Of a stretch of DNA of 64,000 nucleotides, positions 2,618 to 63,528 are shown in pieces; within the stretch, counting starts at the first letter, position 1; each line of letters opens with the position of its first letter. The position numbers and the translations under genes are program-made. Source of the DNA: Pseudomonadales bacterium (GTDB lineage: Bacteria > Pseudomonadota > Gammaproteobacteria > Pseudomonadales > UBA7239); assembly GCA_035430165.1 (NCBI GenBank), contig DAOMGE010000001.1, positions 121,804-185,803 on the forward strand. Direction: 5' to 3'. Under the pieces are notes generated by a model. The model worked only from the letters and a program-made list of their open reading frames with translations, was not told where the DNA came from and did not search any database.

Positions 2618-2647
2618 GTCGCTCTCTTTTCTCTCAATTGGTGCCGC

Positions 2648-4486: not shown

Positions 4487-4501
4487 GATCTCATCCCCGC
4501 C

Positions 4502-36582: not shown

Positions 36583-36730
36583 TGTGAACCCCTTGGATAA
36601 CAATCCTGTTGTCTGCGGGGAGAAAGCATGGCGCTACAGCCGGACGCCGCCGAACGAAGCTGCCAAACTCCTTGCCGTGTCAGGCTATCATCAATCCGGT
36701 GACTCGGGATAGTCTTCCGAAATGGCGAAA

Positions 36731-36804
36731 AAGGAAAAAGGTGCCGGAGGGATTATTTTTTGAGCAACTGATCATTTTTAAATCCCTCCGGCACCTTTTT
36801 CCTT
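36731..36804. repeat. Perfect 24-bp inverted repeat with a 26-nt AT-rich loop, abutting the stop of the 1382-aa gene (probable strong terminator or structured element)
   Basis: AAGGAAAAAGGTGCCGGAGGGATT (36731-36754) is the exact reverse complement of AATCCCTCCGGCACCTTTTTCCTT (36781-36804). On the minus strand a T-rich run follows the second arm. Confidence 0.85.
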
Positions 36805-39800
36805 CAGACATTCTCATCCAGCGACAATTGTGGTTCTGCTTTTCCACGCCACAATTCGCCGCTGCTGAAACTGTTCCAGCCCCAGCGACACCAGTCGAGC
36901 AGGGCAAACGCCAGCCACAATGACCACGCCAGCATCACGCCGCGGTACATCCACATCGGCAATGACAACGCCCATGCCGTTGGCAGCCCGACGGCGGTGC
37001 GATCTTGAAACCAGTTCAGCGACTGCGCGGTGGACTGGTTGCCGATCACTTGCATATCCGGTGATGACAACAGGCTCATCGGGATCGTGCCCAGCAAACA
37101 ACTGATCATGGCCAGCGTCAGTAACACCAGCAGCACCTGCATGGCATTGAAACGTGAACGCGTGAGTTGGGCAGTCTGCAGGTTGCTGCGCTTGGCCAGC
37201 ACCACAAACCACGCCACCACCAGCAAACTGCCCACGGCATTGACGGTACTCATGCCGAGGCCCAGCAGTACCCACTGCCAGGTTTTTACCGGTGCCAGTT
37301 GCAGGCGACCCAACACCAGCGCCACCAGCAGCATCACCACCAGCACACCCCAGAACAACAGGGCTGGCCCCATCATCGGCCCGCCCGCTGCCAGTAACCA
37401 CCGCCCTTCCGGCAAATGCAAACGCAAGCTGATATTGCTGACCGGTTCGTCCAGCTGCGGCTGCGGCAACACAGTGCGTGCGGCCATCGCCACATCCTGT
37501 CGCCAGCGGATATCGATCTGTTGCACACCGGGATGCAGCGGCAGGCGCAACGTGCCATCACTGGCCGGGTTGCCCTGCTCTTTGCCATCGATCATGACCT
37601 TTTGCAGGTTGCTGCCCGCCGGCAGTTGCAAGGGCAAATCGGCGCCCTGGCTACTGCGCACTTGCAGGCGCAACACGGCATCCGCCGCCCGGATACCCGG
37701 ACTGTAATCCAGCTGTGCCGACTCGATGGTGCGGGTGCTACCTTCCAGCGGCGACGGGCGCGAAATCCCCAGTTGCAGGCTTTCGCCCGGCCACGGCTGC
37801 CAGACCGGCATCGCATCTACTTGCGCGCCCTGTCTGACTGGCGGCAAGCCTTCGGTGTCCACGTGCCAGACCGGCGCGACGTCCAGCACCCACCGCTCTA
37901 CCCAGGGCTGGCCTTCCGCTGCTTTCAACGCCAGTTGCTCCGTCTGCTTCAGGGAAGACACCCAGCTGAACGCTGACTGGTCGGCGCTCATCACCACTGG
38001 CACCTTGCTGTCTTTGACCTCGATACCGGGCGTCAGCACCGCCTCACCCGGCAACAGGTTCACTGCGGTGGTGATCGCGCCGTACTGCGGCGCCACACGC
38101 TCGATGACCGTTTGCACCTGCCAGTCCAGACCCAGCACCAGCGTGCGCGTCACCTTCAGGAATACCGGTGCCGGATCCGGCAGCAGCTGCACCTTCTCTG
38201 CTTCCACTGGATCAGCAACCACGGGTTTGTCGCGGGTCAGCTGCAAGCTGCGTCCGGGCACACCGCCATCCACCAGACCGGACACCTGCCAATCCGTGGC
38301 TGTCACGGCCAGATTGTGTACATCCATGGCAAAGGGCAGCGTGAGCGCATCCGCAACCGGCGCACCTTCCATCACAACGCGGTGTGAACCCGCCGTCACC
38401 ACCACCCACAACAAGCCGCTATCGTCCCGCCGCAAACTGCTGGCGGTTTGGCTGTCGATCAGCACCGAGCGAGGCTGCCACTGGTTGCGGCCCGATGGCA
38501 AGGGCACGGCCACCGTCTCCTGGGCATCGATCTGCAAATCGATGCGCACCGCGCGGTCATCCACCGCGATCTGGCCCTTGTTCAAGCTGGCACACTGCGG
38601 CTCACAATCCGGCAGGCGCAACAGGCGCTTTTCCAGCTCTTCCAGCATGGCCTTGTCGGGAATCTCGGCGCGTGCCGCTGACGGCGGCAACAAAAATACA
38701 GCCGCCAGTACGAACGACAGGACCGGGGCCGCAGGCACCGGCGACGATTGCAGCCGCCACGCCAGCAAGGGGTTTGCCGCCCGCAATAACAGCGCCACAA
38801 AACCGCCAGCCAATGCCACCGACAAGGCATTCCACAACCGGTGCAGGAACGGGGACAACAGGTACAACTGCAGGGATTGCTGTTGCGTCACCGGCCCACT
38901 CCACTGCAACTGCACACGCTGCCACTGCCAGGCCGGCTCGCCGGGCCCAGTTTGTACCTTGGCGTTGCTGTCGTAGCCTGTAGGTAATTTTTCGCGCTTG
39001 GCCTTGGCCGGGCGCACGGCATAGCTGGCAGGTGCGGTAGGCGCATTGGCCACCTTGTCTTCCAGTGCGCCTTCTGCAGTGCGGGTACGGATTTCATCAA
39101 CCTCGGCATTCGCTTGCAACGGCTCCGCCACCTCCTTCTCGGCAGGCACTGCAGAGGCTGCCACCTCCACCGGCACGTGACCCTGAATGGCGGCATAGGC
39201 TCCCAGCTCCAGCTGCGGATACAAGCCCTTGCGCACCTGATCGACAGAAAATTGCAGCAGCTGCAACACCAGCAATAACAGCCCCAGCATCAAATAGACC
39301 GACACCAGTTTGTGCAACTTGCCTGTAGGCAGGACGCGCAACAGCGTCAGTGCCACCAGCGCGTTCAGCCACAGGAAAATCGGTGCCTTGTCGCTGTGGT
39401 AGGTCAGCACCAGCGTCAGCAAGGCCACCAGACCGGCCTGCCAACCCAGCAGACGCGACGTGCCTGCCGCCACGATCAGCACCAGAAAGATGGCCCACAA
39501 ATTCCAGCGCGCCAGCCACGACAGCTGCACCTTGTCCACGCCACCGGCATGCAACAGCATCCAGCCGGGCGGCAAGTGCAAAGTGGCCGAAGCATGCGCA
39601 ACGTCCTGCTGCCAGGCGGTTGCCGGCAGTGCGGTGTGTCTTTCAATACGACTCATGCTGCTCAGGCTGAGCGCACCGGGGCGCAATTCGATGCCCGCCG
39701 CTTCCCCGTCGCGGCGCGTGATCAGCCTGGGTTCGCCGTTAACATCGACCCGGCCCAGCACTTGTGGTGGCGCCATCGAAAAACGGGCAGCCTGTTTCAG

Positions 39801-40952
39801 CGTACCTGTCACCACATCGCGACTGGTAAACGCCTGGCCATCAAAATCCAGCCATACATCGCGCTTCAGGTTCAGGGAATCGCCAATGGCAGCCGCCCCG
39901 CTATCCCCGCGCCGCTGCTCGGTCAGCACCAGCTTGTCTTGTGGATGCAGCAGCCACGCCGGCAGTGCACGCCAGGCCGGCGGCAGATCGGTTTGCGAGG
40001 GATCAATGCTGCTGGCACCCGACAGGCTGATCTGGCGCAGGCTGCGATCGTCCTGCAGCGACCAGATTTCTTCTGCGGGCCACACATCGTCCATCCGCTT
40101 CATGGAAAAAGCAGTGGGTTGCTCCTTGGTGGATTGTCTTTCGGCGCGAGCCAGCAGGCGCACTTCCCCGGAGCCGGCACGCAACTGCACGCGCAAGCGG
40201 CCATCCGGCTCGATGCGGGCGGGCAGCGGTGACTCCAGTGACAGCGGCTGCATGCCGTCTGGCAAGAACTGGCCGAGCAGCACTTCGCGATCACGGCCAG
40301 CCACCTGCAGGCGCACAACGGTTTCCAGCTGGACCGGGATATCGTCAATCAGGCGACGGAACACCTGCACCGTCAGGGCATCGGCGACCACATCCGGTGG
40401 CGGCGCGTTCCCGGCCGGGGCATCGCCAAACAGCAACTGGCCCGCGCCATCCACGGATGGATTCGCTACCGCCTTGCCGTTCAGCGTCAGGGACAGCAGG
40501 CCCGTATCCGCCGGGAGCGTCAGGCGCGGCGGCAATTTGTCCCAGTGCAGGGCTCCCTGCAGGCGATATTCCCCCGCCGCCAGCCAGATCACCGGCTTGC
40601 CATCGCGAGCAATCACCGGCAGCGTCTTGTCATTCACCCGCACATTTTGCGGCCAGTATTCACTATCGCCCGGCAGCCAGACCCAGCCCGGCGTATAGAG
40701 CTGCCAATCCTGGCTGAAGGTCGCGCCTCTGGCGTCGGCTTCCAGTGCCAATCGGCCTGGCCATGAACATACATGCTCACCCAGCGCCGCATACGCCGCT
40801 GGACACGCAAGGTCCTTGTGCTGCTCCAGCACCCAGTTGCGCCAGGGCTGCAAGGGTTCCGGCACATTCACCGGTGCCGCTGACGCCTCCGCAGCCAGTG
40901 ATATCGACAATACGGCCAGACAAACGAGCCCGTACTTACGCAATCGCGACAT
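36804..40952 (-). CDS. Giant polytopic membrane protein, family not recognised (signal peptide, two large soluble regions, three hydrophobic clusters)
   Basis: The ATG at 40952 has GGGAGAA 7 nt upstream; the ORF-track start at 40970 is TTG. The protein is 1382 aa and begins MSRLRKYGLVCLAVLSISLAAEASA. The reading frame is long, uninterrupted and GC-rich. Hydrophobic clusters lie mid-protein and at the C-terminus. Confidence 0.7.
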   Translation of the reverse strand: MSRLRKYGLVCLAVLSISLAAEASAAPVNVPEPLQPWRNWVLEQHKDLACPAAYAALGEHVCSWPGRLALEADARGATFSQDWQLYTPGWVWLPGDSEYWPQNVRVNDKTLPVIARDGKPVIWLAAGEYRLQGALHWDKLPPRLTLPADTGLLSLTLNGKAVANPSVDGAGQLLFGDAPAGNAPPPDVVADALTVQVFRRLIDDIPVQLETVVRLQVAGRDREVLLGQFLPDGMQPLSLESPLPARIEPDGRLRVQLRAGSGEVRLLARAERQSTKEQPTAFSMKRMDDVWPAEEIWSLQDDRSLRQISLSGASSIDPSQTDLPPAWRALPAWLLHPQDKLVLTEQRRGDSGAAAIGDSLNLKRDVWLDFDGQAFTSRDVVTGTLKQAARFSMAPPQVLGRVDVNGEPRLITRRDGEAAGIELRPGALSLSSMSRIERHTALPATAWQQDVAHASATLHLPPGWMLLHAGGVDKVQLSWLARWNLWAIFLVLIVAAGTSRLLGWQAGLVALLTLVLTYHSDKAPIFLWLNALVALTLLRVLPTGKLHKLVSVYLMLGLLLLVLQLLQFSVDQVRKGLYPQLELGAYAAIQGHVPVEVAASAVPAEKEVAEPLQANAEVDEIRTRTAEGALEDKVANAPTAPASYAVRPAKAKREKLPTGYDSNAKVQTGPGEPAWQWQRVQLQWSGPVTQQQSLQLYLLSPFLHRLWNALSVALAGGFVALLLRAANPLLAWRLQSSPVPAAPVLSFVLAAVFLLPPSAARAEIPDKAMLEELEKRLLRLPDCEPQCASLNKGQIAVDDRAVRIDLQIDAQETVAVPLPSGRNQWQPRSVLIDSQTASSLRRDDSGLLWVVVTAGSHRVVMEGAPVADALTLPFAMDVHNLAVTATDWQVSGLVDGGVPGRSLQLTRDKPVVADPVEAEKVQLLPDPAPVFLKVTRTLVLGLDWQVQTVIERVAPQYGAITTAVNLLPGEAVLTPGIEVKDSKVPVVMSADQSAFSWVSSLKQTEQLALKAAEGQPWVERWVLDVAPVWHVDTEGLPPVRQGAQVDAMPVWQPWPGESLQLGISRPSPLEGSTRTIESAQLDYSPGIRAADAVLRLQVRSSQGADLPLQLPAGSNLQKVMIDGKEQGNPASDGTLRLPLHPGVQQIDIRWRQDVAMAARTVLPQPQLDEPVSNISLRLHLPEGRWLLAAGGPMMGPALLFWGVLVVMLLVALVLGRLQLAPVKTWQWVLLGLGMSTVNAVGSLLVVAWFVVLAKRSNLQTAQLTRSRFNAMQVLLVLLTLAMISCLLGTIPMSLLSSPDMQVIGNQSTAQSLNWFQDRTAVGLPTAWALSLPMWMYRGVMLAWSLWLAFALLDWCRWGWNSFSSGELWRGKAEPQLSLDENV

Positions 40953-41037
40953 AGCTATTTCTCCCTGCAAACCGGCAGCCTATCGTTGAATACCAACGAT
41001 ACACAAAAAAGGGGACAGATGCGTTTGTCAGATCCCG

Positions 41038-43290
41038 TTATTGCTCGAGCGATTGCCGCTCGCGGAAGACACTGCCTTTGTAATGGCCATCCAGTGGCAA
41101 TAGTGCTTCGACGTTAATACCGGCATTGAGCGGTGCGGCATCGATGTAATCCGGCACGCCATCGTTGTCGTCGTCAAGGTCCCGGCTATTTGGCACACCA
41201 TCGTTGTCGGTGTCCAGCGGCAACAGGTCGGAGAAATCCGTCTGGCCATCGCCGTCGTCATCACTGTCTGTCGTGTCTGCCGCGCCGTCGCTATCAGTGT
41301 CCAGCCATGCGCCCTGCCCATTGAACAGGTACACCGCGCGGCTGGTGGTTGAACTGACAGCGATATCGGCATAACCGTCACCGTTGATATCGCCGGTATC
41401 ACACACGGCAGCCCCGAAGAAAGCATCCCCGATGAACGAGTAGAGAACCGAGCCGTCCATGCCACTGAAAACCCTTGCCTTGCCGGAGCCATTGCCGCTG
41501 CCGACGATCACATCGGCGCGCCCGTCGTGGTTAACATCACCGGCACCGCTGACGGCAGAGCCAAAGTAGTTGCCGCTCTTGTCGCCTGTGAATGTGTAGA
41601 GGGTATTGCCATTGGCGCCACTGAAAACGCGTGCCATGCCGGCAGAGGATCCGTTTGGATCGGCCAGGTAGGCACCAGCTATGATGTCCGGACGCCCGTC
41701 GCCATCCACATCACCAGCCTTGCTGATACTACTGCCGAGTAAATCGCCGGCCTGGTCGCCGTCCAGGGTATAGAGGATGCTGCCGTCACTGCCACTGAAT
41801 ACGCGCACAGATCCGGACAGACTGCCGTTGTTGTCGTCGTAAGGTGCACCGACAGCCACGTCGTCATGGCCATCGCCATTCACATCGCCAATACCGCTGA
41901 CGGCGAGGCCGAAATTGTCGCCTGCACTGTCCCCGTTGAATGTGTAGAGCAAGCTGCCATTCGCACCACTGTAGACGTAAGCCGCGCCTGCGTTGTTGCC
42001 GGTGCTGTCATTCTGGAAAGCACCCACCAGAATATCGGCCTTGCCGTCACCATTGACATCCCCTGCGCCGCTGACGGCAATGCCGAAACCGTCGCCGGCA
42101 GCCTGCCCATTAAATGTATAAAGCACGGCGCCATTGGCGCCGCTTAACACGCGTGCCGATCCTGCCCCGTCGCCCGTGTTGTCATCGCCGTAGGCACCAA
42201 CAACCAGGTCGGGATAACCGTCACCGTTGACATCGCCGGCACCCGCTACCGAGCGGCCGAGCCAGTCCAGCGCGTTGTCACCGTAAAAGGTGAACAATGT
42301 GCTGCCGTTCGCGCCACTCAGGACATACGCCGCGCCGGCACTGGTGCCGTGGGTGCTGTCGGCATAGGCGCCGACAATGAGGTCGTCCACGCCGTCCTGG
42401 TTAATGTCGCCGGCGTTATCCATGGCGCTGCCGAAGGAGTCGGTATTCTTGCTGGTTTTTCCCAGCAGATTGCTGTCGCCCGTGGTGCGAGAGGGGTCGG
42501 TGGGAAAAGCATCCTGCGCATCAGCCGTGCCGTCATTGTCGTCATCGTTATCGCAGGCATTGCCTGAGCCGTCGGTATCACTGTCTGTTTGGCTGGTATT
42601 GCTGACGGCGGGGCAGTTGTCGACAAACCCGTCGACGCCATCATTGTCGATATCGCCGGCCTGGGCCGGGTCCAGCGGGAACTGGTCGTAGATGTCGAGT
42701 ACGCCGTCGTTGTCATCATCACTGTCACAGGCGTTGCCAGCACCATCACCGTCGTAATCGGCCTGATCGACGTTGTGGCTGTTCGGGCAGTTGTCCGAGG
42801 CATTGGCGATGTTGTCGAAATCCTGGGTATCCAGCTGGTCGAGCCCGCTGAAGCTGATGGATTTCAAGCCGGGCGCCGTGGTGTTCAGGGATGTCCGGAA
42901 TATTTCCCATTCCAGGGTGTGGGTACCGGCAGCCACATTGAAGCTGCAGCTGGTAGTTGTGCAGCTGGATTGCAGGGCGGCGTCGTAGCGTAGTTGGATG
43001 CAGTTGATTGAACAGGTGTTGCTTTGCTGCCATGTCAGCGTATAGGCATTGCCATTAGTGACGGTCAGGGTCAGTTTGGCACTGGCGGTTGTGTTGGATG
43101 CCACGCCTGCGCCGAGCAGGACGGTTGCGTTACTGGTAACAAGCCACGTGGGCCCCGGCGGTAAATTTGCGCTGATGAGAAAAGTGAAGGTCGCATCGGC
43201 CGCGCTGGCTGCTGGAGCGACAAGCATTCCTATTGGCCATAGGGCGACGGCCAACAGACGACTGAAGCGGGATAAGATCCAATGTGGCAT
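41038..43290 (-). CDS. Secreted protein: N-terminal beta-sandwich-like domain, TSP type 3 repeats, seven FG-GAP (integrin-alpha-like) repeats, C-terminal TSP3 repeats and a conserved tail
   Basis: Signal peptide LLAVALWPIGMLVAPAASAADA. It has DxDxDGxGNACDxDDDNDG repeats and seven copies of FGxAVSGAGDVNGDGxxDxxVGA. The tail is ...DNDGVPDYIDAAPLNAGIN. Confidence 0.8.
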   Translation of the reverse strand: MPHWILSRFSRLLAVALWPIGMLVAPAASAADATFTFLISANLPPGPTWLVTSNATVLLGAGVASNTTASAKLTLTVTNGNAYTLTWQQSNTCSINCIQLRYDAALQSSCTTTSCSFNVAAGTHTLEWEIFRTSLNTTAPGLKSISFSGLDQLDTQDFDNIANASDNCPNSHNVDQADYDGDGAGNACDSDDDNDGVLDIYDQFPLDPAQAGDIDNDGVDGFVDNCPAVSNTSQTDSDTDGSGNACDNDDDNDGTADAQDAFPTDPSRTTGDSNLLGKTSKNTDSFGSAMDNAGDINQDGVDDLIVGAYADSTHGTSAGAAYVLSGANGSTLFTFYGDNALDWLGRSVAGAGDVNGDGYPDLVVGAYGDDNTGDGAGSARVLSGANGAVLYTFNGQAAGDGFGIAVSGAGDVNGDGKADILVGAFQNDSTGNNAGAAYVYSGANGSLLYTFNGDSAGDNFGLAVSGIGDVNGDGHDDVAVGAPYDDNNGSLSGSVRVFSGSDGSILYTLDGDQAGDLLGSSISKAGDVDGDGRPDIIAGAYLADPNGSSAGMARVFSGANGNTLYTFTGDKSGNYFGSAVSGAGDVNHDGRADVIVGSGNGSGKARVFSGMDGSVLYSFIGDAFFGAAVCDTGDINGDGYADIAVSSTTSRAVYLFNGQGAWLDTDSDGAADTTDSDDDGDGQTDFSDLLPLDTDNDGVPNSRDLDDDNDGVPDYIDAAPLNAGINVEALLPLDGHYKGSVFRERQSLEQ

Positions 43291-51901: not shown

Positions 51902-53029
51902 GTGGATCTCGATTTCAACGAAGAACAAGTCATGCTGCGCGACACCGCGCGCGGCATATGTGAAGAATTGTCCCCGTCGGCCATCGTGCGGGCGATGGAG
52001 CAGGACGAGACCGGTTTTTCTGCGCCGTTCTGGAAGCAGCTGGCCGAACTGGGTATCACCAGCCTCGGCATTCCCGAAGCGCATGGCGGCATGGCCTGGG
52101 GCGCGCTGGAAATGGCTATCGTCTATGAAGAATTCGGCCGCTCACTGGCGCCGAGCCCGCACTGGGCCAGTTGCGTATTGTCCGCCAAACTGCTGGAACT
52201 GGCCGGCACCGACGCACAACAATCCGCACTGCTGCCCGGTATTGCCGCTGGCGAAACCATCGTCGTGCCGGCATGGCTGGAACCCAAAAACGGTTTTGGC
52301 CCGGAAGGCGTACAACTGCGCGCGGCAAAACAGGGTGACACGTATGTATTGAACGGCACCAAATTGCTGGTGCCTTTTGCGTCCAGCGCATCAAGGCTGC
52401 TGGTATTGGCGCGCACCGGTGAAGGGGTACAGGATGTGGCCGGTTTGCTGGTTGATCCTGCTGCACAAGGCGTAACGATCACGCGCGAACGCAACCATGC
52501 TGACGATGCGCTATACCAAGTGGATTTCAACCATGTCAGCGTTGCCACTGTCGATGTGCTCGAGCAGAAAAACTTCTGGGGCGCATGGGATGAAGCCATG
52601 ACCCGCTCGATTGTTGCGCAAGCGGCACAGGCGATCGGTGCTGCCGAAGCCATCCATGCCATGGCAACCGACTATTCCAAGCAACGTGTGCAGTTTGGCA
52701 AACCCATCGGCTCCTTCCAGGCCATCGCGCATTATCTCGCCGACCTGATTGTAAAAATCGAGGGCGCGAAAGTGCTGGTGTACCAGGCCGCGTGGGCCAT
52801 CGACAACAACAAGCCTTACGCAAAACTGGCCGCGCAGGCCAAGTTGCAAGCCTGCAATGTTTTCCGTGAAGCGTCTGCGACCGGCGTACAAATCCACGGC
52901 GGTTTCGGTTTCACCTCCGAAGGCGATCCGCAATTGTATTTCCGCCGCGCCAAACACTGGCAGTTGATGAACTGGGATTCTTCGTATCTGGAAAAACGTA
53001 TTGCTGCGTTGGTGCTAGATGCAGCGTGA
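51902..53029 (+). CDS. Acyl-CoA dehydrogenase family protein
   Basis: GTG start. The N-terminus MDLDFNEEQVMLRDTAR and the C-terminus QIHGGFGFTSE...YFRRAK are ACAD signatures. Confidence 0.9.
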   Translation: MDLDFNEEQVMLRDTARGICEELSPSAIVRAMEQDETGFSAPFWKQLAELGITSLGIPEAHGGMAWGALEMAIVYEEFGRSLAPSPHWASCVLSAKLLELAGTDAQQSALLPGIAAGETIVVPAWLEPKNGFGPEGVQLRAAKQGDTYVLNGTKLLVPFASSASRLLVLARTGEGVQDVAGLLVDPAAQGVTITRERNHADDALYQVDFNHVSVATVDVLEQKNFWGAWDEAMTRSIVAQAAQAIGAAEAIHAMATDYSKQRVQFGKPIGSFQAIAHYLADLIVKIEGAKVLVYQAAWAIDNNKPYAKLAAQAKLQACNVFREASATGVQIHGGFGFTSEGDPQLYFRRAKHWQLMNWDSSYLEKRIAALVLDAA

Positions 53030-53085
53030 TGAAATAGATGGGCGTGATAAATCACGCCCCTACGCAAAAAACTAACGGGGTTTTT

Positions 53086-53967
53086 ATGGGAATTCTTGAC
53101 GGCAAAGCAGCCATCGTTACCGGCAGTGGACGTGGCGTAGGTCGCGGTCACTGTCTCCATCTGGCAAAGAACGGCGCAAAAGTTGTTGTGAATGATATTT
53201 TGCTGGAAGAAGCGCAAAAAGTTGCTGATGAAATCAATGCGTCGGGCGGCGAAGCCATTGCCAGCAACGCCGACATTGGCACACGCGCCGGCTGCGAATC
53301 ACTGGTGCAACAGTGTGTGGATGCGTTCGGCCATATCGACATCGCCATCAACAACGCCGGCATTGTGCGCGACAAGACCTTACTGAAACTGGAAGATGCC
53401 GATTTTGATCTGGTGTTGCGCATCCACGTGATGGGCACGTTCTGGATTGCACAAGCCGCTGCGAAAAAAATGATCGAGCAAGGCACAGGCGGCTCGATTA
53501 TCAACACCACATCCGGCGCACATTTCGGCAGCTTCGGACAGACGAATTATTCCGCTGCCAAAGGCGCAATTGCATCGATGACCTACACCTGGGCGATGGA
53601 ACTGGCGAAGCACGGCATTCGTGTCAACGCGATTGGCCCGCTCGCCACCACACACATGTCGGCCACGTTTTCTGACGCCGACAAGATGCCGTATTTTCCG
53701 CCAGAAAATAACGGCCCGATTGTGTGCTGGTTGTGCAGCGACGAAGCGGATTTTGTTTCCGGCCAGATTTTCGGCACCGGCGGCGATCGCATCTCGCACA
53801 TGGTGCAACCGCATTACGGCAAGACACTCATACAACCGGGCGGCTGGGAAATCGACCAGATCCGCACGTATTTCAAACAGCACATGCAACCGGAGTTCGG
53901 CGCGTTCGGCATGCTCGGCAAACCGTACCCGTTCCACGCCGGCGTTAAACCACCGGCAAAAGATTGA
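53086..53967 (+). CDS. SDR family oxidoreductase
   Basis: Start at MGILDGKAAIVTGSGRGVGRG (TGxxxGxG). Also has NNAG and the YSAAK catalytic motif. Confidence 0.85.
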   Translation: MGILDGKAAIVTGSGRGVGRGHCLHLAKNGAKVVVNDILLEEAQKVADEINASGGEAIASNADIGTRAGCESLVQQCVDAFGHIDIAINNAGIVRDKTLLKLEDADFDLVLRIHVMGTFWIAQAAAKKMIEQGTGGSIINTTSGAHFGSFGQTNYSAAKGAIASMTYTWAMELAKHGIRVNAIGPLATTHMSATFSDADKMPYFPPENNGPIVCWLCSDEADFVSGQIFGTGGDRISHMVQPHYGKTLIQPGGWEIDQIRTYFKQHMQPEFGAFGMLGKPYPFHAGVKPPAKD

Positions 53968-53974
53968 CCTCCCC

Positions 53975-54045
53975 GATTCGCTGCGCGAATCACCCCTCCT
54001 ACCCAGCAGGAGGGGCATCGTCTCCCCTGCGTAGTAGGGGAGATG
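53975..54045. repeat. Three consecutive short GC-rich hairpins in the SDR / HMGCS-like intergenic region
   Basis: GATTCGC-tgc-GCGAATC (53975-53991), CCCCTCC-9 nt-GGAGGGG (53993-54015) and TCTCCCCT-gcgtagt-AGGGGAGA (54021-54043). Confidence 0.5.
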
Positions 54046-54095
54046 CTGAACGCAGTGAAGCAGAGGGGTCATCATCAGGTTAGCGAGGTTTTAAT

Positions 54096-55547
54096 ATGAT
54101 CGGTATTGTTTCTTACGGCGCATACATTCCGCGCATGCGTTTGCCGGCATCGGTGATGGCGGGCAAGGCACCCAAAGAAGGCGGCCCGGAAAAAGCCGTG
54201 GCATGGATGGACGAAGACAGCGTGACGATGGCCGTCGCCGCAGCACAAAACTGCTTGCAGGGTTTTGATCGCTCGCGTGTCGATGCCGTGCTGTTTGCGA
54301 CAACAACTTACGCGTTTGCCGAGAAACAAGGTGCCGCGATTATCGCAAAAGCCCTGAACCTGAAAGGTGACGTGCGCACGGCAGATATTTCCCACAGCAC
54401 CCGTTCGGGCAGTATTGCATTGCAATCTGCTGTGGATGCCGTGAAAGCGGGCAGCGCAGCACGCGTGCTGGTGATTGCCGCCGATTGCCGCATGGGCGCA
54501 CCCGGTTCCGGTTTTGAAGCGAATACCGGCGATGCTGCCGCTGCCTTTCTCGTCGGTGCAGAAGGCGCGATTGCATCACTGGATTGTGCGTGCGCGCACA
54601 CCACGGAAATTATCGACATCTGGCGCAAACAGGGCGACCGTTTTGTGCACAGTTGGGAAGACCGTTTCGTCAACGTACACGGCTACATCGACAACACGGT
54701 TGCTGCCATCAAGGGTCTGTTTGCAAAAAGCGGCAAGACCGCCGCCGATATTGCGAAAGCCGCGCTGTACGCACCGGAAGCGCGTTCGCTTGGCGAAATG
54801 AGCAAAGCCGCCGGCATTGCGAAAGAACAAATCCAGGACACTTTGTTTGGTAAAGTCGGCAATGCCGGTTCAGCTTACGCACCCCTGTTGTTGATTGCCG
54901 CACTGGAAAATGCGAAAGCGGGTGAAAAAATTCTCGTTGCCAATTATGGCGACGGTGCTGATGCGATGTTATTCACCGTCACGGGTGCTCGCAACAAGGC
55001 AGAAGGCTATCGCAGCGTGAACGATTTGTTGGCGCACCGCAAAGTGGTTGATGCTTATGGCAAATACATGAAAGCGCGCGGCCTGACGATTACCGAATAT
55101 CCTGAAAACGACGATCAGGGAATTTCTGCCACGGTGCATTACCGTGAACGCGATGAGGATTTGTCGCTCGAAGGCCAACAGTGCACGCACTGTGGCACGC
55201 ACCAGTTTCCGAAAGGCCGCGTTTGCGTGCGCTGCCATGCAAAAGATTTGTGGACGCCATCCTGCTACAGCGATCTCACCGGCAAAGTGGTGACCTACAC
55301 ACTCGATGCATTTTTTCCATCACCGGAACCACCAACCGCTGTCGGCATTATTGAAGTGGTGAACGCCGATGGCTCGGCCGGCCCACGCATCCACATGCAG
55401 ATCGGCGAAACCACGCCGAAAGATATCGCCATTGATTTGCCGGTTGAATTCACCTTCCGCTGCATCCACCGCGTCGGTTTGCGTCCGAATTATTTCTGGA
55501 AATGTACGCCCATTGCCACAGCTGTCGCTGAAGGAGCTGCCGCATGA
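54096..55547 (+). CDS. HMG-CoA synthase-like (thiolase-fold) domain fused to a C-terminal DUF35-type zinc-ribbon/OB-fold domain
   Basis: The N-terminus MIGIVSYGAYIPRMRL...DEDSVTMAV resembles archaeal-type HMGCS. The C-terminus has the CTHCGTHQFPKGRVCVRC zinc ribbon followed by an OB-like segment. The RBS GCGAGG lies upstream. Confidence 0.75.
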   Translation: MIGIVSYGAYIPRMRLPASVMAGKAPKEGGPEKAVAWMDEDSVTMAVAAAQNCLQGFDRSRVDAVLFATTTYAFAEKQGAAIIAKALNLKGDVRTADISHSTRSGSIALQSAVDAVKAGSAARVLVIAADCRMGAPGSGFEANTGDAAAAFLVGAEGAIASLDCACAHTTEIIDIWRKQGDRFVHSWEDRFVNVHGYIDNTVAAIKGLFAKSGKTAADIAKAALYAPEARSLGEMSKAAGIAKEQIQDTLFGKVGNAGSAYAPLLLIAALENAKAGEKILVANYGDGADAMLFTVTGARNKAEGYRSVNDLLAHRKVVDAYGKYMKARGLTITEYPENDDQGISATVHYRERDEDLSLEGQQCTHCGTHQFPKGRVCVRCHAKDLWTPSCYSDLTGKVVTYTLDAFFPSPEPPTAVGIIEVVNADGSAGPRIHMQIGETTPKDIAIDLPVEFTFRCIHRVGLRPNYFWKCTPIATAVAEGAAA

Positions 55548-56707
55548 GTATCAAGGACAAAGTTGCCATTGTCGGTGTCGGTTGCTGCAAGTTCGGCGAG
55601 AACTGGGATCGCTCCGAAGAAGACATGATTGTTGATGCCGCGTATGAAGCGTATGCGGATGCTGGCATCACTGAACCCTCCAGACAGATCGATGCAATTT
55701 ACTGCGGATCGCTGTACACCAAGAACGGCCCGGTGGAAGTCGGTGAGGCCCTGAAGTTGTACAAACCACTCACAGCGGTATCCAATTACTGCGCAACCGG
55801 CACGGAAGCATTTCGCGCCGGCGTGATGGCTATCGCAGCCGGTGTGTACGACACCGTACTGGTGGTCGGTTATGACAAACCCAAGGATCGCGGCGTATCT
55901 GGCCCGAGTGTCAATATCAAAGGTGTGCGCGATTTACCTGCAACACCGGCGGGCTGGTTTGCCATGTGCGCCGCACCGTATTTCAAGAAATTTGGCGCCG
56001 GCCGTGAAGACCTCGCGAAAATTGCTGTGAAAAACCATTTCAACGGCACACTGTCACCCAAATCATTTTTGAAAAAAATCATTACCGAAGAAGAGGCGCT
56101 GAATGGCCGCATGATTTCCTGGCCGTTTGGTTTGTACGATTGCGCGGCACAATCCGACGGCGCCGCCGTTGCGGTTATCACCAAGGCATCGCTCGCGAAA
56201 AATTTTCGTGACAACCCCGTGTACGTAAAAGCCGTGGCGAGTGGTTCGGCGGCGAATCCGCATACGGATCCCGACCACGATTTCCTGCGCTGGAAGCCGA
56301 CCGAAAATGCAGCGGCAGAAGCGTACAAAATGGCGGGCATCACCAACCCGTTTAAAGAAATTCATCTGGCGCAAGTGCATGACTGTTTCACGCTGACGGA
56401 ATTGCTCGCTTACGAAGATCTCGGTTTTATTCCGAAAGGTGCAGCGAAAGAACATATCGCCAACGGCACGTTCACACTGAAAGGCGAATTGCCGGTGAAC
56501 AGTGACGGCGGCCTGAAAACATTTGGTCACCCGACCGGCGCGACCGGCGTGCGCATGATTGTCGAAAACGTCCTGCAGTTGCAGGGTCGTGCAGACAAAC
56601 GTCAGCTGGCGTTGCACAACGGCAAACAACCGACCATGGCACTGACGCACAACATCGGCGGTTTCCCGACCGGCTGCGCCGTGAGCATCATTGGTATCGA
56701 CAAATAG
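55544..56707 (+). CDS. Thiolase-fold protein, SCP2/nonspecific lipid-transfer-type thiolase
   Basis: 387 aa. Contains VAIVGVGCCKFGE, SNYCATGTEAF (putative nucleophile Cys) and the C-terminal ...HNIGG. An ATGA overlap links it to the upstream gene. Confidence 0.85.
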   Translation: MSIKDKVAIVGVGCCKFGENWDRSEEDMIVDAAYEAYADAGITEPSRQIDAIYCGSLYTKNGPVEVGEALKLYKPLTAVSNYCATGTEAFRAGVMAIAAGVYDTVLVVGYDKPKDRGVSGPSVNIKGVRDLPATPAGWFAMCAAPYFKKFGAGREDLAKIAVKNHFNGTLSPKSFLKKIITEEEALNGRMISWPFGLYDCAAQSDGAAVAVITKASLAKNFRDNPVYVKAVASGSAANPHTDPDHDFLRWKPTENAAAEAYKMAGITNPFKEIHLAQVHDCFTLTELLAYEDLGFIPKGAAKEHIANGTFTLKGELPVNSDGGLKTFGHPTGATGVRMIVENVLQLQGRADKRQLALHNGKQPTMALTHNIGGFPTGCAVSIIGIDK

Positions 56708-59523: not shown

Positions 59524-60339
59524 ATGGTATTCGAAACAGTTTCCTATGACGTGAAAGATGGCGTTGCTGTTATCACGCTCAATCGTCCGCAACAACGCAA
59601 TGCCGTGAATTCAATCATGAGCCGTGAATTGCCGTTGGTGTGGCAGCATTTCAACCAGGATAAAACCGCCGTCGTTGCGATTCTCACGGGCGCTGGCGAC
59701 AAAGCCTTGTGCACAGGTGCAGATCTCGCTGACTTGCCGGAAACCGATGGCGACGTGGATGAACAAGGTCGCAAATTCGGTTCGCTCGCGTCGATCAAAT
59801 GGACATCACTGCAAAACCGTATCTGGAAACCGGTGATCTGCGCCGTGAATGGCATGGTGGTGGGTGGTGGCCTGCATTTTGTCGCGGATGCCGACATCGT
59901 GATTGCAGCAGACACAGCAACATTTTTTGATACGCATGTAAAAGTGGGACTGGTCGCCGGCCTGGAGCCGGTGAGTCTCGTGCGCAAGATGCCGTTTGAT
60001 GCCGTGATGCGTATGGCGCTCACCGGCGGCAATGAACGCATGACGGCACAACGTGCGTATGAACTCGGCATGGTGGGTGAAATCGTTCCCGCTGCTGAAT
60101 TGATGGCGCGTGCACACGCACTCGCGGATCTCATCAAAACCAATTCTCCCATAGCACTGGCGCGCTCGAAAAAAGCGATCTGGGAAGCCAAGGAAATGGG
60201 CCTGCACGCTGCACTGGAAAATGCGTGGGGCTACATCATGGACCAGAATACACATCCGGATATTGCCGAAGGCGGCAAGGCTTTTATGGAAAAAAGAAAT
60301 CCGCAGTGGCAACCGTACGCGGGCGAATGTGATGAGTAA
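59524..60339 (+). CDS. Enoyl-CoA hydratase/isomerase (crotonase) family protein
   Basis: 271 aa. Contains VAVITLNRPQQRNA, GAGDKALCTGADL and ICAVNGMVVGGGL. Confidence 0.9.
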   Translation: MVFETVSYDVKDGVAVITLNRPQQRNAVNSIMSRELPLVWQHFNQDKTAVVAILTGAGDKALCTGADLADLPETDGDVDEQGRKFGSLASIKWTSLQNRIWKPVICAVNGMVVGGGLHFVADADIVIAADTATFFDTHVKVGLVAGLEPVSLVRKMPFDAVMRMALTGGNERMTAQRAYELGMVGEIVPAAELMARAHALADLIKTNSPIALARSKKAIWEAKEMGLHAALENAWGYIMDQNTHPDIAEGGKAFMEKRNPQWQPYAGECDE

Positions 60340-60829
60340 ACAGGCGATGACTGAATCGCCGCTGACACGTTTTTTCACGGCGGACGGATCAGGAAAAATT
60401 GCTGACGGTTATATCCTGCTACCGGATGGCCTCGGCTTTAACGACGCGTTTGCACCGGTTTATGTGAAAGTGGACGAGCACGGCTGGCACTGCGGTTTTT
60501 TTGTCGAAAAACATCACCTGAATCCGCAAGGTATTTGTCATGGCGGCGTGTTGATGAGTTTTTGCGATCTTGCCATGGCCGGCAACATCGGCCATCACAT
60601 CAATGAAATGATGGGCATTTTCACCATCAACATGAATACCGATTTTCTCTCGCCAGGTCGATTGGGCCAATGGCTGGAAATGCGCGTACACCATTTGCAC
60701 ACCACACGCACCATGGCAACCATCGGCGGACTGATCCACGGGCCGGAGGGTGTGGTTGTGCGCACCAACGGCATCTATCGCTTGCCGAAAGACTGGTCTA
60801 CAAAAAAACCTGCAAGCCCAGCTGCATGA
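60332..60829 (+). CDS. PaaI-family hotdog-fold thioesterase
   Basis: Start at MSKQAMTES, with an 8-nt overlap with the crotonase gene. NPQGICHGGVLMSFCDLAMA is typical of PaaI/4HBT type II. Confidence 0.8.
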   Translation: MSKQAMTESPLTRFFTADGSGKIADGYILLPDGLGFNDAFAPVYVKVDEHGWHCGFFVEKHHLNPQGICHGGVLMSFCDLAMAGNIGHHINEMMGIFTINMNTDFLSPGRLGQWLEMRVHHLHTTRTMATIGGLIHGPEGVVVRTNGIYRLPKDWSTKKPASPAA

Positions 60830-60830
60830 A

Positions 60831-61460
60831 ATGATGCTGGATGCGCATGCCATAGCGGATGCATTGTGCCAGCAAGGCTGGTGGGTAGGTCAGGATGCCA
60901 TTGACCGCCACTTGTCAGCAGCATTGCATGCCGAGGCAGGCAGATTGCAGCAAACCGGTGCCATGCATGCCGCGATGATCGGGCGCGGCAACACACAACA
61001 GCACAACACAACAACACGCAGCGACAGGATTCACTGGCTGGATGCTGCAACGGATGCGCAGCAACTTTATCTCGGGCAGATGGAAACATTGCGCTGCGGA
61101 CTGAATCGCGAACTGATGCTCGGCCTGTTCGAATTTGAAGCGCATTTCGCCTGTTATCCGCCCGGTGCTTTTTATAAAAAACATGTCGACAGTTTTGTCG
61201 GCAGTGCCAGCCGCCTGGTCTCGGTTGTCAGTTACCTGAATCGTGACTGGCCTGCCGGCAGCGGTGGCGAATTGCTCCTGTTTTCGGAAGATGGCGAATC
61301 TGAAATGTCGCGCGTCGTACCGCAAGCAGGCACCGTCGCTATTTTTCTCAGTGAAAAAATCCCGCACGCCGTCGAGGCTGCCACACGGGAACGCTACAGC
61401 ATCGCCGGCTGGTTTCGCGTCAATGCGTCCAGTGGCCAACGTATTGATGTGATGACGTAA
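60831..61460 (+). CDS. 2OG-Fe(II) oxygenase superfamily protein (prolyl-hydroxylase-like)
   Basis: Start at MMLDAH, 1 nt after the PaaI stop. Has the HxD...H facial triad (KKHVDSF ... IPHAVEA) and RYSIAGWF (2OG-binding Arg). Confidence 0.8.
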   Translation: MMLDAHAIADALCQQGWWVGQDAIDRHLSAALHAEAGRLQQTGAMHAAMIGRGNTQQHNTTTRSDRIHWLDAATDAQQLYLGQMETLRCGLNRELMLGLFEFEAHFACYPPGAFYKKHVDSFVGSASRLVSVVSYLNRDWPAGSGGELLLFSEDGESEMSRVVPQAGTVAIFLSEKIPHAVEAATRERYSIAGWFRVNASSGQRIDVMT

Positions 61461-61578: not shown

Positions 61579-63528
61579 ATGTCCACCCACGTATCAGGCC
61601 AACACATCTATCCGGTTCTTCCCGAATTTGCTGCCAACGCGCTGGTCACGCGTGAGCAGTATGACGCCATGTATCGCCAGTCCATTGAGCAGCCGGATCG
61701 TTTCTGGGCAGAACAGGCCACAAAATTCCTGTCGTTTGAACGCGTGTGGGACCAGGTCGCCGAATACGATCTGGCGAAAGGCCATGCGCGCTGGTTTGCC
61801 GGTGCGCAACTGAATGTGAGTGTGAACTGCATTGATCGCCATCTCGCCACGCGCGGCGAACAGACAGCGATCATCTGGGAAGGCGATGACCCGTCGCAAG
61901 ACAAGCGCATCACCTATCGCGAATTGCACAAACACGTGTGCCAACTCGCCAACGCGCTGAAAGTGCGCGGCGTGAAACGCGGTGATCGTGTCTGCATCTA
62001 CATGCCGATGATTCCGGAAGCGGCTTACGCCATGCTGGCCTGCACGCGTCTCGGCGCCGTGCATTCCATCGTCTTCGGCGGTTTTTCGCCGGAGTCACTG
62101 AAAGACCGCATCCTCGATTCCGATTGCCGCGTGGTGATCACGGCCGATGAAGGTTTGCGCAGTGGCAAGACCATCCCGATGAAAGCCAATGTCGATCTCG
62201 CGCTGCGCAACTGCCCGAACGTTCACACGGTTGTCACGGTGAAGCGCACGGGCAACGACATCAACTGGCAAGCGCCGCGCGACATCTGGTATCACGAATT
62301 TGTCGATGACCAGGATGAACAGTGCGATCCGGAATGGATGGGCGCGGAAGATCCGCTGTTTATCCTGTACACCTCCGGCTCTACCGGCAAACCCAAGGGG
62401 GTGTTGCACACCACAGCGGGATATTTGCTGATGGCGGCGATGACGTTCCGCTACACGTTTGATTATCACGACGGCGATATTTTCTGGTGTACCGCCGATG
62501 TCGGCTGGGTCACCGGTCATTCCTACACGGTGTACGGCCCGCTCGCCAACGGCGGCACCACGCTGATGTTTGAAGGCGTGCCGACGTATCCTGACGCGTC
62601 GCGTTGCTGGCAAGTGTGCGACAAACACCACGTCAATATTTTTTACACCGCACCCACAGCCATCCGCGCACTGATGGCGCAAGGCAACCGTTTTGTCGAA
62701 GCGAGTTCGCGCCGCAGCATTCGCCTGCTCGGCACGGTCGGTGAACCGATCAACCCGGAAGCGTGGGAGTGGTATCACCGTGTGGTCGGCGAAGGCCGCT
62801 GCCCGATTGTGGATACGTGGTGGCAAACCGAAACCGGCGCGCAAATGCTCACGCCATTACCGGGTGCGATTGCACTGAAACCCGGCTCGGCCACCTTGCC
62901 GATGTTTGGCGTGCAGCCAGCGTTGCTCGACCAGAACGGCAAGGAAATTGAAGGTGCCGGCGAAGGCATGCTGGTGATCAAGGCATCGTGGCCAAGCCAG
63001 ATCCGCACGGTGTACGGCAATCACCAACGCCTGATTGAAACCTATTTCTCGCAATATCCCGGTTATTACTTTACCGGCGACGGCGCGCGCCGCGATGCCG
63101 ACGGTTATTACTGGATCACCGGTCGCGTCGATGACGTGCTGAATATTTCCGGCCACCGCCTCGGCACCGCAGAAATCGAATCTGCGCTCGTGCTGCACCC
63201 GAAAGTCGCCGAAGCCGCGGTGGTCGGTTATCCACACGACATCAAGGGCCAGGGTATTTATTGTTTCGTCACACTGATGAACGGCGAAACCGGCGACGAG
63301 GCACTGGAAAAAGAACTGGTGCAATGTTGTGTGCAGGAAATCGGCCCCATTGCAAAACCGGATCTGATCCAGTGGGCGCCGGGCTTGCCGAAAACACGCT
63401 CAGGCAAAATCATGCGCCGCATCTTGCGCAAGATCGCCGAAAACGAATTATCAAATCTGGGCGACACATCGACGCTGGCCGATCCGTCGGTGGTGGAGCA
63501 CCTTGTTAAACACAGCAGGCACAAGTGA
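61579..63528 (+). CDS. acs: Acetyl-CoA synthetase (AMP-forming)
   Basis: 649 aa. Contains [42 protein letters not shown] and the C-terminal [13 protein letters not shown]. Confidence 0.95.

Follow-up and report, generated by a model that had tools for sequence, protein, structure and literature searches.

A fused HMG-CoA-synthase-like/DUF35 protein that has lost its catalytic residues, and its SCP2-type thiolase neighbour, in a beta-oxidation cassette of a Pseudomonadales bacterium

This study examines a pair of overlapping genes within a 64,000-nucleotide stretch of DNA from a Pseudomonadales bacterium (contig DAOMGE010000001.1), the whole of which is referred to here as the window. The first gene (open reading frame (ORF) 54096-55547, + strand) encodes a 483-residue protein in which a domain related to 3-hydroxy-3-methylglutaryl-coenzyme A (HMG-CoA) synthase (HMGS, or HMGCS) is joined to a DUF35 module; the second encodes a thiolase of the sterol carrier protein 2 (SCP2) type. 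Judged from its sequence, the HMGS-like domain is most likely catalytically dead, as its active-site Glu, Cys and His are gone. We propose that the fusion supplies the HMGS-like/DUF35 half, itself without catalytic function, of a heteromeric complex with the thiolase, in which the SCP2-type subunit carries out thiolysis within a dedicated beta-oxidation module, and we put the probability of this reading at about three in four. The scaffold interpretation as such is not new, having been published in substance in January 2026 (PMC12960953). What is added to the published work is a conserved catabolic operon context, evidence of purifying selection and a link to the oestrogen-degradation (edc) gene clusters. 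The gain is one of annotation and pathway context, and no new principle is claimed.

The architecture of the fusion protein is readily divided into three parts. Residues 1-330 (54096-55085, +) form the pseudo-HMG-CoA-synthase domain, which aligns from end to end with NF003274, the model for archaeal-type HMG-CoA synthases, its score of 223.1 bits falling short of the curated cut-off of 244; against TIGR00748 the fusion scores 160.2 bits, with a cut-off of 353.35 that is likewise not reached. Its best match among solved structures is 6esq_I, which is the HMGCS in the thiolase/HMGCS/DUF35 complex from Methanothermococcus (E 7e-38), and the PhlA-type chains 9skh_A and 5m3k_A follow close behind (E about 1e-36). 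The archaeal-type character that the original prediction, a reading by eye, had ascribed to the N-terminus is borne out by these matches. An interdomain linker of residues 331-356 (55086-55163, +) is marked by reduced sequence conservation in the homologue alignment and by a dip in the predicted local distance difference test (pLDDT) of the AlphaFold2 model, the ten-residue block 341-350 averaging 59. The DUF35 module (55164-55511, +) consists of a rubredoxin-like zinc ribbon (residues 357-385) and an oligonucleotide/oligosaccharide-binding (OB) fold (residues 386-472). The former scores 32.3 bits against PF12172 (zf-ChsH2), above the cut-off of 23.2, and the latter 25.1 bits against PF01796 (OB_ChsH2_C), slightly below the cut-off of 27.1, while residues 349-473 match the DUF35 chain 6esq_E (E 3e-6). 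All four cysteines of the zinc ribbon are present in the motif CTHC...CVRC (Cys363, Cys366, Cys377 and Cys380), and a four-cysteine ribbon followed by an OB fold, the mark of a DUF35 protein, is what had been claimed for the C-terminus. The model of the whole fusion is of high confidence (pLDDT 90.3, predicted TM score 0.92). Its best Foldseek matches are 9skh, the PhlA-like subunit of CsATase; 6esq_I, the archaeal HMGCS; 5mg5_A, which is PhlA; and 9vbo, which is MucA, with TM scores normalized to the target of 0.80-0.87. Both PhlA and MucA are known HMGS-like subunits without catalytic function.

The catalytic tetrad of archaeal HMGS was defined by Liao et al. as E82/C114/H238/N270 (PMC12960953). 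To map these positions, the sequences of 6esq_I and PhlA were rebuilt from HMMER alignments, their numbering was checked and they were aligned with the fusion in MAFFT; the HMMER and MAFFT alignments agree. At the position of Glu82 the fusion has Thr70 (54303-54305; VGSE82SH aligned with FATT70TY), where PhlA has Cys. Cys114 is replaced by Thr102 (54399-54401; LEFAC114KAG aligned with ISHST102RSG), with Gly in PhlA, and His238 by Tyr225 (54768-54770; VFH238QP aligned with ALY225AP), with Gln in PhlA. The two replacements that had been read by eye, SHSTRSG for the acyl-enzyme motif EFACKAG and ATTT for the catalytic Glu motif GSES, are therefore confirmed by formal alignment, which places no Cys, Glu and His triad at the active site. 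The sole survivor of the tetrad, on which the earlier reading was silent, is the Asn (N270, here N256; 54861-54863; LGN270T aligned with VGN256A), a residue that is Asp in PhlA. An active archaeal-type HMG-CoA synthase is recognized by the complete E-C-H-N tetrad, of which this protein retains one member.

The loss of these residues is not a chance event, because the same substitutions hold family-wide. The catalytic positions were checked in about 370 full-length fused homologues, drawn as three sets: the 120 closest homologues, 135 diverse representatives and 117 members of a second subfamily. Counting in the archaeal numbering, neither Glu at position 82 nor Cys at position 114 occurs in any of them (0/120, 0/135 and 0/117 for each residue), and the catalytic His, absent from the window protein, is likewise missing from all the full-length fused relatives that were checked. 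Threonine stands at position 82 in all 120 of the closest homologues, in 116 of the 135 diverse representatives and in 116 of the 117 second-subfamily members. Position 114 is mainly Leu; Thr is found in the clade of the window protein, and Ala, Pro and Met also occur. By contrast with the vanished active site, the four zinc cysteines are retained in 133-134 of the 135 diverse representatives and in all 117 members of the second subfamily.

The fused, Cys-less form proves to be very common. A word-indexed homologue search returned more than 2,649 matches, of which the best 120 are all fusions of about 470-500 residues, and a HMMER profile search of 1.84 billion representatives clustered at 50% identity gave 5,100 matches, 941 of them at E<=1e-30, with nearly all of the best 150 being full-length fusions. 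The second subfamily, found in Aromatoleum, Azoarcus and Variovorax, contributes thousands more members; it is 33% identical to the window fusion and carries T, then L, A, M or P, then P, then D at the four tetrad positions. Many of the relatives bear the database label 'hydroxymethylglutaryl-CoA synthase', and others are called 'FabH C-terminal domain protein' or 'OB-fold protein'. The family is thus very large and mostly mis-annotated, and recognizing it guards against crediting these bacteria wrongly with a mevalonate pathway. On haloarchaeal plasmids (Halomarina, Halorubrum), HMGS-like genes with about 30% identity lie beside, or are joined to, genes for zinc-ribbon/OB-fold proteins; should these HMGS-like genes keep the tetrad, the fusion may predate the inactivation.

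The dead domain is held by purifying selection and is not decaying. Among 11 close orthologues, the ratio of non-synonymous to synonymous substitution rates (dN/dS) is 0.054 for the dead HMGS domain and 0.043 for DUF35, comparable to the enzymes encoded next to it (thiolase 0.020; short-chain dehydrogenase/reductase (SDR) 0.047; acyl-CoA dehydrogenase (ACAD) 0.067), all of these figures being approximate with dS close to saturation (1.2-1.7).

The partner gene (55544-56707, +) encodes a thiolase of 387 residues. An SCP2-type thiolase is marked by a Thiolase_C_1 domain, a nucleophilic Cys and the motifs HDCF and GHP, and is without the C-terminal cysteine of a CxG motif. Each of these marks is found in the window protein: it scores 117 bits against PF22691 (Thiolase_C_1), keeps the nucleophile in NYC83ATG (Cys codon 55790-55792), H279-D-C281-F (56378-56389) and G-H329-P (56525-56533), and reads NIGGF at its C-terminus. 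It also scores 409.6 bits against NF004810, thereby passing the curated cut-off of 403 bits. Among its nearest relatives of solved structure are an archaeal-type acetyl-CoA acetyltransferase (ACAT), the thiolase of 6ESQ (E 3e-43) and BbsB (E 4.5e-43). By sequence, then, the adjoining protein should be a competent enzyme, and the earlier assignment of the overlapping gene to the SCP2-type thiolases holds. The stop codon of the fusion and the start codon of the thiolase share the tetranucleotide ATGA at 55544-55547, a 4-nt overlap through which the two genes are translationally coupled. Each gene is preceded by a plausible Shine-Dalgarno sequence (GAGG 5' of 54096 and GGAG 5' of 55544).

The genes around this pair encode the remaining types of enzyme expected of a beta-oxidation module. 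The cassette opens with an ACAD of 375 residues (51902-53029, +) in which the N, M and C domains of the Pfam Acyl-CoA_dh series are all present. It continues with an SDR of 309 residues (53038-53967, +), a predicted (3R)-3-hydroxyacyl-CoA dehydrogenase of the MFE-2/17beta-HSD4 type. Among solved structures this SDR is closest to 2et6_A, in which yeast MFE-2 provides the (3R)-hydroxyacyl-CoA dehydrogenase (E 1e-82), and 17beta-HSD4 (1gz6, 1zbq) comes next. A 271-residue enoyl-CoA hydratase (ECH) of the crotonase family (59524-60339, +; 163.8 bits against ECH_1) is a probable member of the same pathway; EchA19 is its best NCBIfam model, with a score of 191 bits that falls under the cut-off of that model. 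In the window, genes for a lipoprotein and, on the minus strand, for a TPR/GT41 protein stand between thiolase and hydratase, and in closer relatives the hydratase lies 3.2 kb past the fusion start.

This arrangement recurs well beyond the window. The genomic context was surveyed in 80 loci from GTDB species representatives, with denominators that vary by neighbour. In 69 of 74 loci the thiolase comes directly after the fusion, and in 40 of 73 the MFE-2-type SDR comes directly before it; one or two ACADs lie upstream in the same orientation in 47 of 61, and one or two crotonase-type hydratases lie downstream in 37 of 60. Two further neighbours are frequent, namely a luciferase-like gene (30/50) and a gene of 1,170 codons with POR and DUF6537 domains, which belongs to the indolepyruvate-ferredoxin-oxidoreductase family (23/50). 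The cassette of ACAD, SDR, fusion, thiolase and ECH is found in Pseudomonadales, Myxococcota, Binatia and other metagenome-assembled genomes (MAGs). Single-chain combinations point in the same direction. A representative of 911 residues (P0217) unites dead HMGS, DUF35, SDR and an SCP2 sterol-carrier domain, and one of 722 residues (P0234) unites dead HMGS, DUF35 and two SCP2 domains, sets that resemble the domain combinations of the eukaryotic peroxisomal proteins MFE-2 and SCPx. As Rosetta-stone fusions, they tie the family to the beta-oxidation of lipophilic substrates.

Several characterized systems share parts of this organization. The closest in architecture is the Pseudomonas fluorescens complex (PfACAT/HMGS-DUF35) of Liao et al., who mined 1,030 bacterial HMGS/ACAT/DUF35 loci and found 1,001 of them to be without a polyketide synthase (PKS) or non-ribosomal peptide synthetase (NRPS) (Nat Commun, January 2026; PMC12960953). 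That complex combines a fused HMGS-DUF35 chain without the tetrad and an ACAT that keeps the Cys, HDxF and GHx. It forms neither HMG-CoA nor acetoacetyl-CoA and instead cleaves acetoacetyl-CoA, an activity nearly abolished by the change H294Y in the HDxF histidine of ACAT, and related ACAT subunits on their own are insoluble or inactive (PMC12960953). The window shares with it the one-chain HMGS::DUF35, the lost Glu, Cys and His, the adjoining ACAT/SCP2-type thiolase with Cys, HDxF and GHx, and the lack of PKS and NRPS genes; shared behaviour, thiolysis without HMG-CoA synthesis, is predicted from these sequence features. Two differences stand out. The window protein retains the tetrad Asn, and it is encoded in a clear beta-oxidation cassette, whereas the P. 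fluorescens complex has been described as pathway-less.

Overall, the three modules all find their best sequence match in the archaeal thiolase/HMGCS/DUF35 complex (6ESQ), which has the same set of folds and is likely the ancestral architecture. It differs in having an active HMGCS (E82/C114/H238/N270), a DUF35 that forms a chain of its own and an anabolic role in the mevalonate pathway. Benzoylsuccinyl-CoA thiolase BbsAB (7PXP) and the steroid aldolases Ltp2-ChsH2(DUF35) and Sal-Shy illustrate the need of an SCP2-type thiolase-fold enzyme for a DUF35 partner and, like the proposed window complex, are catabolic and belong to the class acting on bulky CoA esters; unlike it, they have no HMGS-like module, and their DUF35 is either free or fused to a MaoC hydratase. 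The PhlACB enzymes (PpATase, CsATase; 5M3K/5MG5, 9SKH) and MucABC (SmaATase; 9VBO/9VBT) also share an HMGS-like part without Glu and Cys, a DUF35 and a thiolase-like part. PhlA, reported in 2018 to lack Cys and Glu, is non-catalytic, with catalysis left to PhlC alone and the substrate contacted only by PhlC residues (PMC6392133). PhlA-like chains are among the top sequence and structure matches to the fusion, at about 30-32% identity and a TM score of about 0.82. These systems differ from the window in having three separate polypeptides, a linkage to PKS/NRPS and a role in small-molecule acylation, and HDxF is lost from the thiolase-like subunit, being missing from both PhlC and MucB (PMC12960953).

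On the most probable view of how the window proteins would work, the fusion and the coupled thiolase form a heteromeric complex in which the thiolase is the sole catalyst, using Cys83 as nucleophile together with HDCF and GHP. The fused DUF35 would act as adaptor, as it does in the archaeal, PhlACB and MucABC complexes, where it bridges the HMGS-like dimer and the thiolase-like dimer. If the solved complexes are a guide, the dead HMGS/DUF35 part may keep the thiolase soluble and correctly shaped and may help to form an interfacial chamber for CoA and substrate. Within a dedicated beta-oxidation module, the complex would then be responsible for thiolytic (retro-Claisen) cleavage, the other steps falling to the acyl-CoA dehydrogenase, the crotonase-type hydratase and the MFE-2-type hydroxyacyl-CoA dehydrogenase encoded nearby. 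Its probable substrates are bulky, cyclic or branched acyl-CoA esters, possibly steroid-derived. The pseudo-enzyme scaffold that had been suggested for this locus is supported by the family-wide dead site, the intact thiolase, the coupling of the genes, the purifying selection, the PhlA/MucA-like fold and the findings of Liao et al. (PMC12960953). On that reading the locus is a clean natural case of a pseudo-enzyme retained as structural partner of a former pathway neighbour.

The closest characterized context for such a module would be the removal of carbon from the ring-A-cleaved oestrogen CoA ester in the 4,5-seco pathway of sphingomonads. The best annotated match to the window comes from Novosphingobium sp. 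ES2-1, a degrader of oestradiol, whose plasmid p3 (IM701_RS20355/20360 for fusion and thiolase) carries the same five genes in the same order with 40% (ACAD), 64% (SDR), 49% (fusion), 71% (thiolase) and 57% (ECH) identity. The ES2-1 fusion has 467 residues, is annotated as 'OB-fold domain-containing protein' and reads TLSF at the dead tetrad; its stop overlaps the start of the downstream acetyl-CoA acetyltransferase by 4 nt, as in the window. Also encoded there are a P450, two VOC-family proteins, a protein belonging to the indolepyruvate-ferredoxin-oxidoreductase family, an Ltp + DUF35 pair, FadD3 and the TetR regulator IM701_20395. The locus is identified as an oestrogen (edc) cluster because this TetR is the one that Ibero et al. 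give as EdcR homologue for the oestrogen cluster in ES2-1 (PMC8700777). In Novosphingobium (Caenibius) tardaugens the edc operon OpA shows this gene order too, encoding an ACAD (13565), a hydroxyacyl-CoA dehydrogenase (13560), an 'HMG-CoA synthase' (EGO55_13555) and a thiolase (13550); EGO55_13555 is induced by oestradiol (E2), and Ibero et al. could not give it a pathway step in 2020 (PMC7793797). The gene also served as expression marker of OpA (PMC8700777). From the orthologous ES2-1 cluster, we infer that EGO55_13555 is itself fused. EdcC yields 4-norestrogen-5(10)-en-3-oyl-CoA, from which beta-oxidation-like steps lead to HIP. The window locus joins the biochemistry of Liao et al. (2026) to the unexplained E2-induced 'HMG-CoA synthase' of the edc clusters (Ibero et al. 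2020), and the two papers together give a testable assignment, that of one thiolytic step in the catabolism of oestrogen and other bulky acyl-CoA esters.

The window itself was rejected as an edc cluster. The P450 EdcA, the extradiol dioxygenase EdcB and EdcC, an oxidoreductase in the indolepyruvate-ferredoxin-oxidoreductase family, were not found in its 64 kb; genes for POR/DUF6537, P450 and VOC proteins are absent both from the surroundings of the cassette and from the rest of the window and, unlike the edc clusters, the cassette is without a nearby Ltp/DUF35 aldolase or FadD3. The window's own clade, with relatives 87-90% identical, also lacks EdcC-like and dioxygenase neighbours, and for that reason the locus is not called an oestrogen cluster. 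A steroid-type substrate in this organism is conceivable, with the balance of the evidence tilting the other way. A POR gene is, however, present close to the cassette in two relatives that are 61-63% identical (L005, L017), and L005 also has an extradiol-dioxygenase-like gene. The POR/DUF6537 gene and a luciferase-like monooxygenase adjoin the cassette in these two, in L001-L003 and in many uncultured Myxococcota loci, alongside the ES2-1 plasmid (L086), and some loci, for example L001 and L002, have SnoaL/NTF2, P450, AMP-ligase and CoA-transferase genes close by. From its likeness to edc gene content, the POR/DUF6537 neighbour in the Myxococcota loci is EdcC-like, which suggests that uncultured Myxococcota carry steroid- or oestrogen-like catabolic islands.

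Several observations weigh against the proposed complex and its role. That the two proteins form a complex, and that the thiolase needs the fusion, is carried over from homologous systems; the scaffold role and the substrate class are inferences as well. The kinship to PfACAT/HMGS-DUF35 is drawn from architecture and not from sequence identity; no P. fluorescens entry appeared in the homologue searches (including one seeded with an Azoarcus fusion), the genome scan or the plasmid tblastn. EdcA, EdcB and EdcC are missing from the window, as stated above, and the selection figures carry the uncertainty of a near-saturated dS. In five related loci no thiolase adjoins the fusion: L061, L064, L069, L076 and L082, from Myxococcota and 'Spirochaetaceae' MAGs, have two hydratase genes directly after the fusion and no adjoining SCP2-type thiolase, and there the partner thiolase may be encoded elsewhere or the fusion may work differently. 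Finally, with the tetrad Asn and numerous residues of the ancestral motifs conserved, the old pocket may still have some part in ligand binding or catalysis.

The last point can be taken further in two directions. The bolder extension of the proposed complex holds that the fused dead-HMGS/DUF35 is the obligatory, specificity-determining partner of a 'bulky-substrate' thiolase for oestrogen 4,5-seco and related catabolism in many uncultured lineages (Pseudomonadales, Myxococcota, Binatia), the remodelled HMGS pocket helping to bind the steroid-derived acyl group. We offer this as a tentative idea, one that may well be wrong; if true, it would explain the edc 'HMG-CoA synthase' and overturn the view of a pathway-less intermediate. 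The other direction is that the HMGS-like domain is not dead at all, having acquired a new activity or ligand binding through a remodelled pocket (the invariant Thr70, the retained Asn256 and the likewise invariant D130/R132/H185/E188/R190), which could bind the bulky acyl moiety and might catalyse a hydrolysis or isomerization. The low dN/dS of the domain (0.054) fits such a pocket, as do the about 40 domain positions that are invariant in 116 sequences and the almost universal Thr in place of the catalytic Glu. Non-HMG-forming complexes retain an interfacial chamber (PMC12960953), and Ibero et al. raised the idea that the homologue in edc 'might have other activities' (PMC7793797). Most of the invariant motifs (DEDxxT, DxWR...H...RF, YGxGA), however, are shared with active archaeal HMGCS and look ancestral and structural. 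No nucleophile stands at the Cys position, which is Leu, Thr, Ala, Pro or Met family-wide, and both precedents cited above place the chemistry in the thiolase-like partner, PhlC residues alone touching the substrate in PhlACB (PMC6392133) and the single ACAT change H294Y nearly abolishing activity in P. fluorescens (PMC12960953). We consider a neo-functional pocket of this kind improbable.

Liao et al. call the P. fluorescens complex an evolutionary intermediate, so far without pathway recruitment (PMC12960953), and the window pair could on the same argument be a leftover of the mevalonate-pathway complex that has lost its function and been recruited nowhere. Consistent with this, the published in-vitro activity is generic acetoacetyl-CoA thiolysis with no pathway identified (PMC12960953), and the cassette is flanked in the window by housekeeping genes (cytochrome oxidase, COQ7, UvrD, PPK2 and acetyl-CoA synthetase). 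A leftover would hardly be expected to number thousands of members, to keep an operon with ACAD, SDR and ECH in many phyla, to have both fusion domains under purifying selection, to occur in fusions with SDR and SCP2 domains or to have an edc homologue that is E2-induced within a catabolic operon. Conservation of the catabolic operon, purifying selection and the connection to edc together argue against the 'not yet recruited' view, which we rate as very unlikely.

A Friedel-Crafts C-acyltransferase of the PhlACB/MucABC type, acetylating a small-molecule acceptor in secondary metabolism, would account for the high rank that PhlA and the PhlA-like CsATase subunit hold among the matches in both sequence and structure, and the HMGS-like part of that enzyme is likewise without Glu and Cys (PMC6392133). 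The intact HDCF at residues 279-282 of the window thiolase, the absence of PKS and NRPS genes from the ORFs of the 64-kb window, the conserved neighbours, which are beta-oxidation enzymes, and the DUF35 fused here and separate in Phl/Muc make this function scarcely credible. That the fusion is an active HMG-CoA synthase, or part of an archaeal-like biosynthetic complex channelling acetoacetyl-CoA to HMG-CoA, as the annotation of many relatives and the archaeal HMGCS model as best profile might imply, is excluded by the lost tetrad, whose full replacement abolishes HMG-CoA formation in the archaeal complex (PMC12960953), and by the scores under both curated cut-offs (223 against 244 and 160 against 353), and no mevalonate-pathway genes lie near the fusion.

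Other features of the cassette and its surroundings complete the description of the window. The SDR and fusion genes are separated by a structured spacer of 128 nt (53968-54095, +) with two G+C-rich hairpins and the Shine-Dalgarno sequence GAGG at its 3' end. It folds into two neighbouring hairpins within a longer stem (-61.2 kcal/mol, z = -4.9) that is not followed by a T-run. It is single-copy in the window and matches no Rfam family at threshold, giving a sub-threshold match only. Relatives have nearly no spacer at this point, as judged from SDR offsets, and the spacer looks like a genome-specific insertion; it could be a REP-like element or one that processes or stabilizes the mRNA. A scan of the cassette for promoters and terminators gave results no better than those from shuffled sequences.

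The hydratase gene is followed by that of a 4HBT-fold acyl-CoA thioesterase (60332-60829, +; 50.2 bits against PF03061), the ATG of which overlaps the hydratase stop by 8 nt; a thioesterase follows the hydratase in relatives' loci L008, L012, L014 and L015 as well. A 2-oxoglutarate-Fe(II) oxygenase (60750-61460) and an acetyl-CoA synthetase (61579-63528) lie 3' of the thioesterase, and the gene order ECH, thioesterase, oxygenase is kept in several close relatives. On plasmid pAZKH of Azoarcus sp. KH32C (L087), the fusion, one of the second subfamily, is followed by an ACAT and a gene of the acetyl-CoA hydrolase/transferase family, a context unlike that of the window. Far from the cassette, three very large ORFs on the minus strand (34312-43290) with thrombospondin type-3, RCC1 and FG-GAP repeats are the source of the DNA repeat families D1-D3, and the ORF 36804-40970 (-), of 1,388 codons, is without any Pfam match. 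At 1565-6304 (-) is a two-subunit 2-oxoacid:ferredoxin oxidoreductase (POR/POR_N, 612 residues, and TPP_enzyme_C, 350 residues), adjoined by a 600-residue Fer4/pyridine-nucleotide-disulphide oxidoreductase; it lies 50 kb from the cassette and differs from the fused EdcC-type enzyme.

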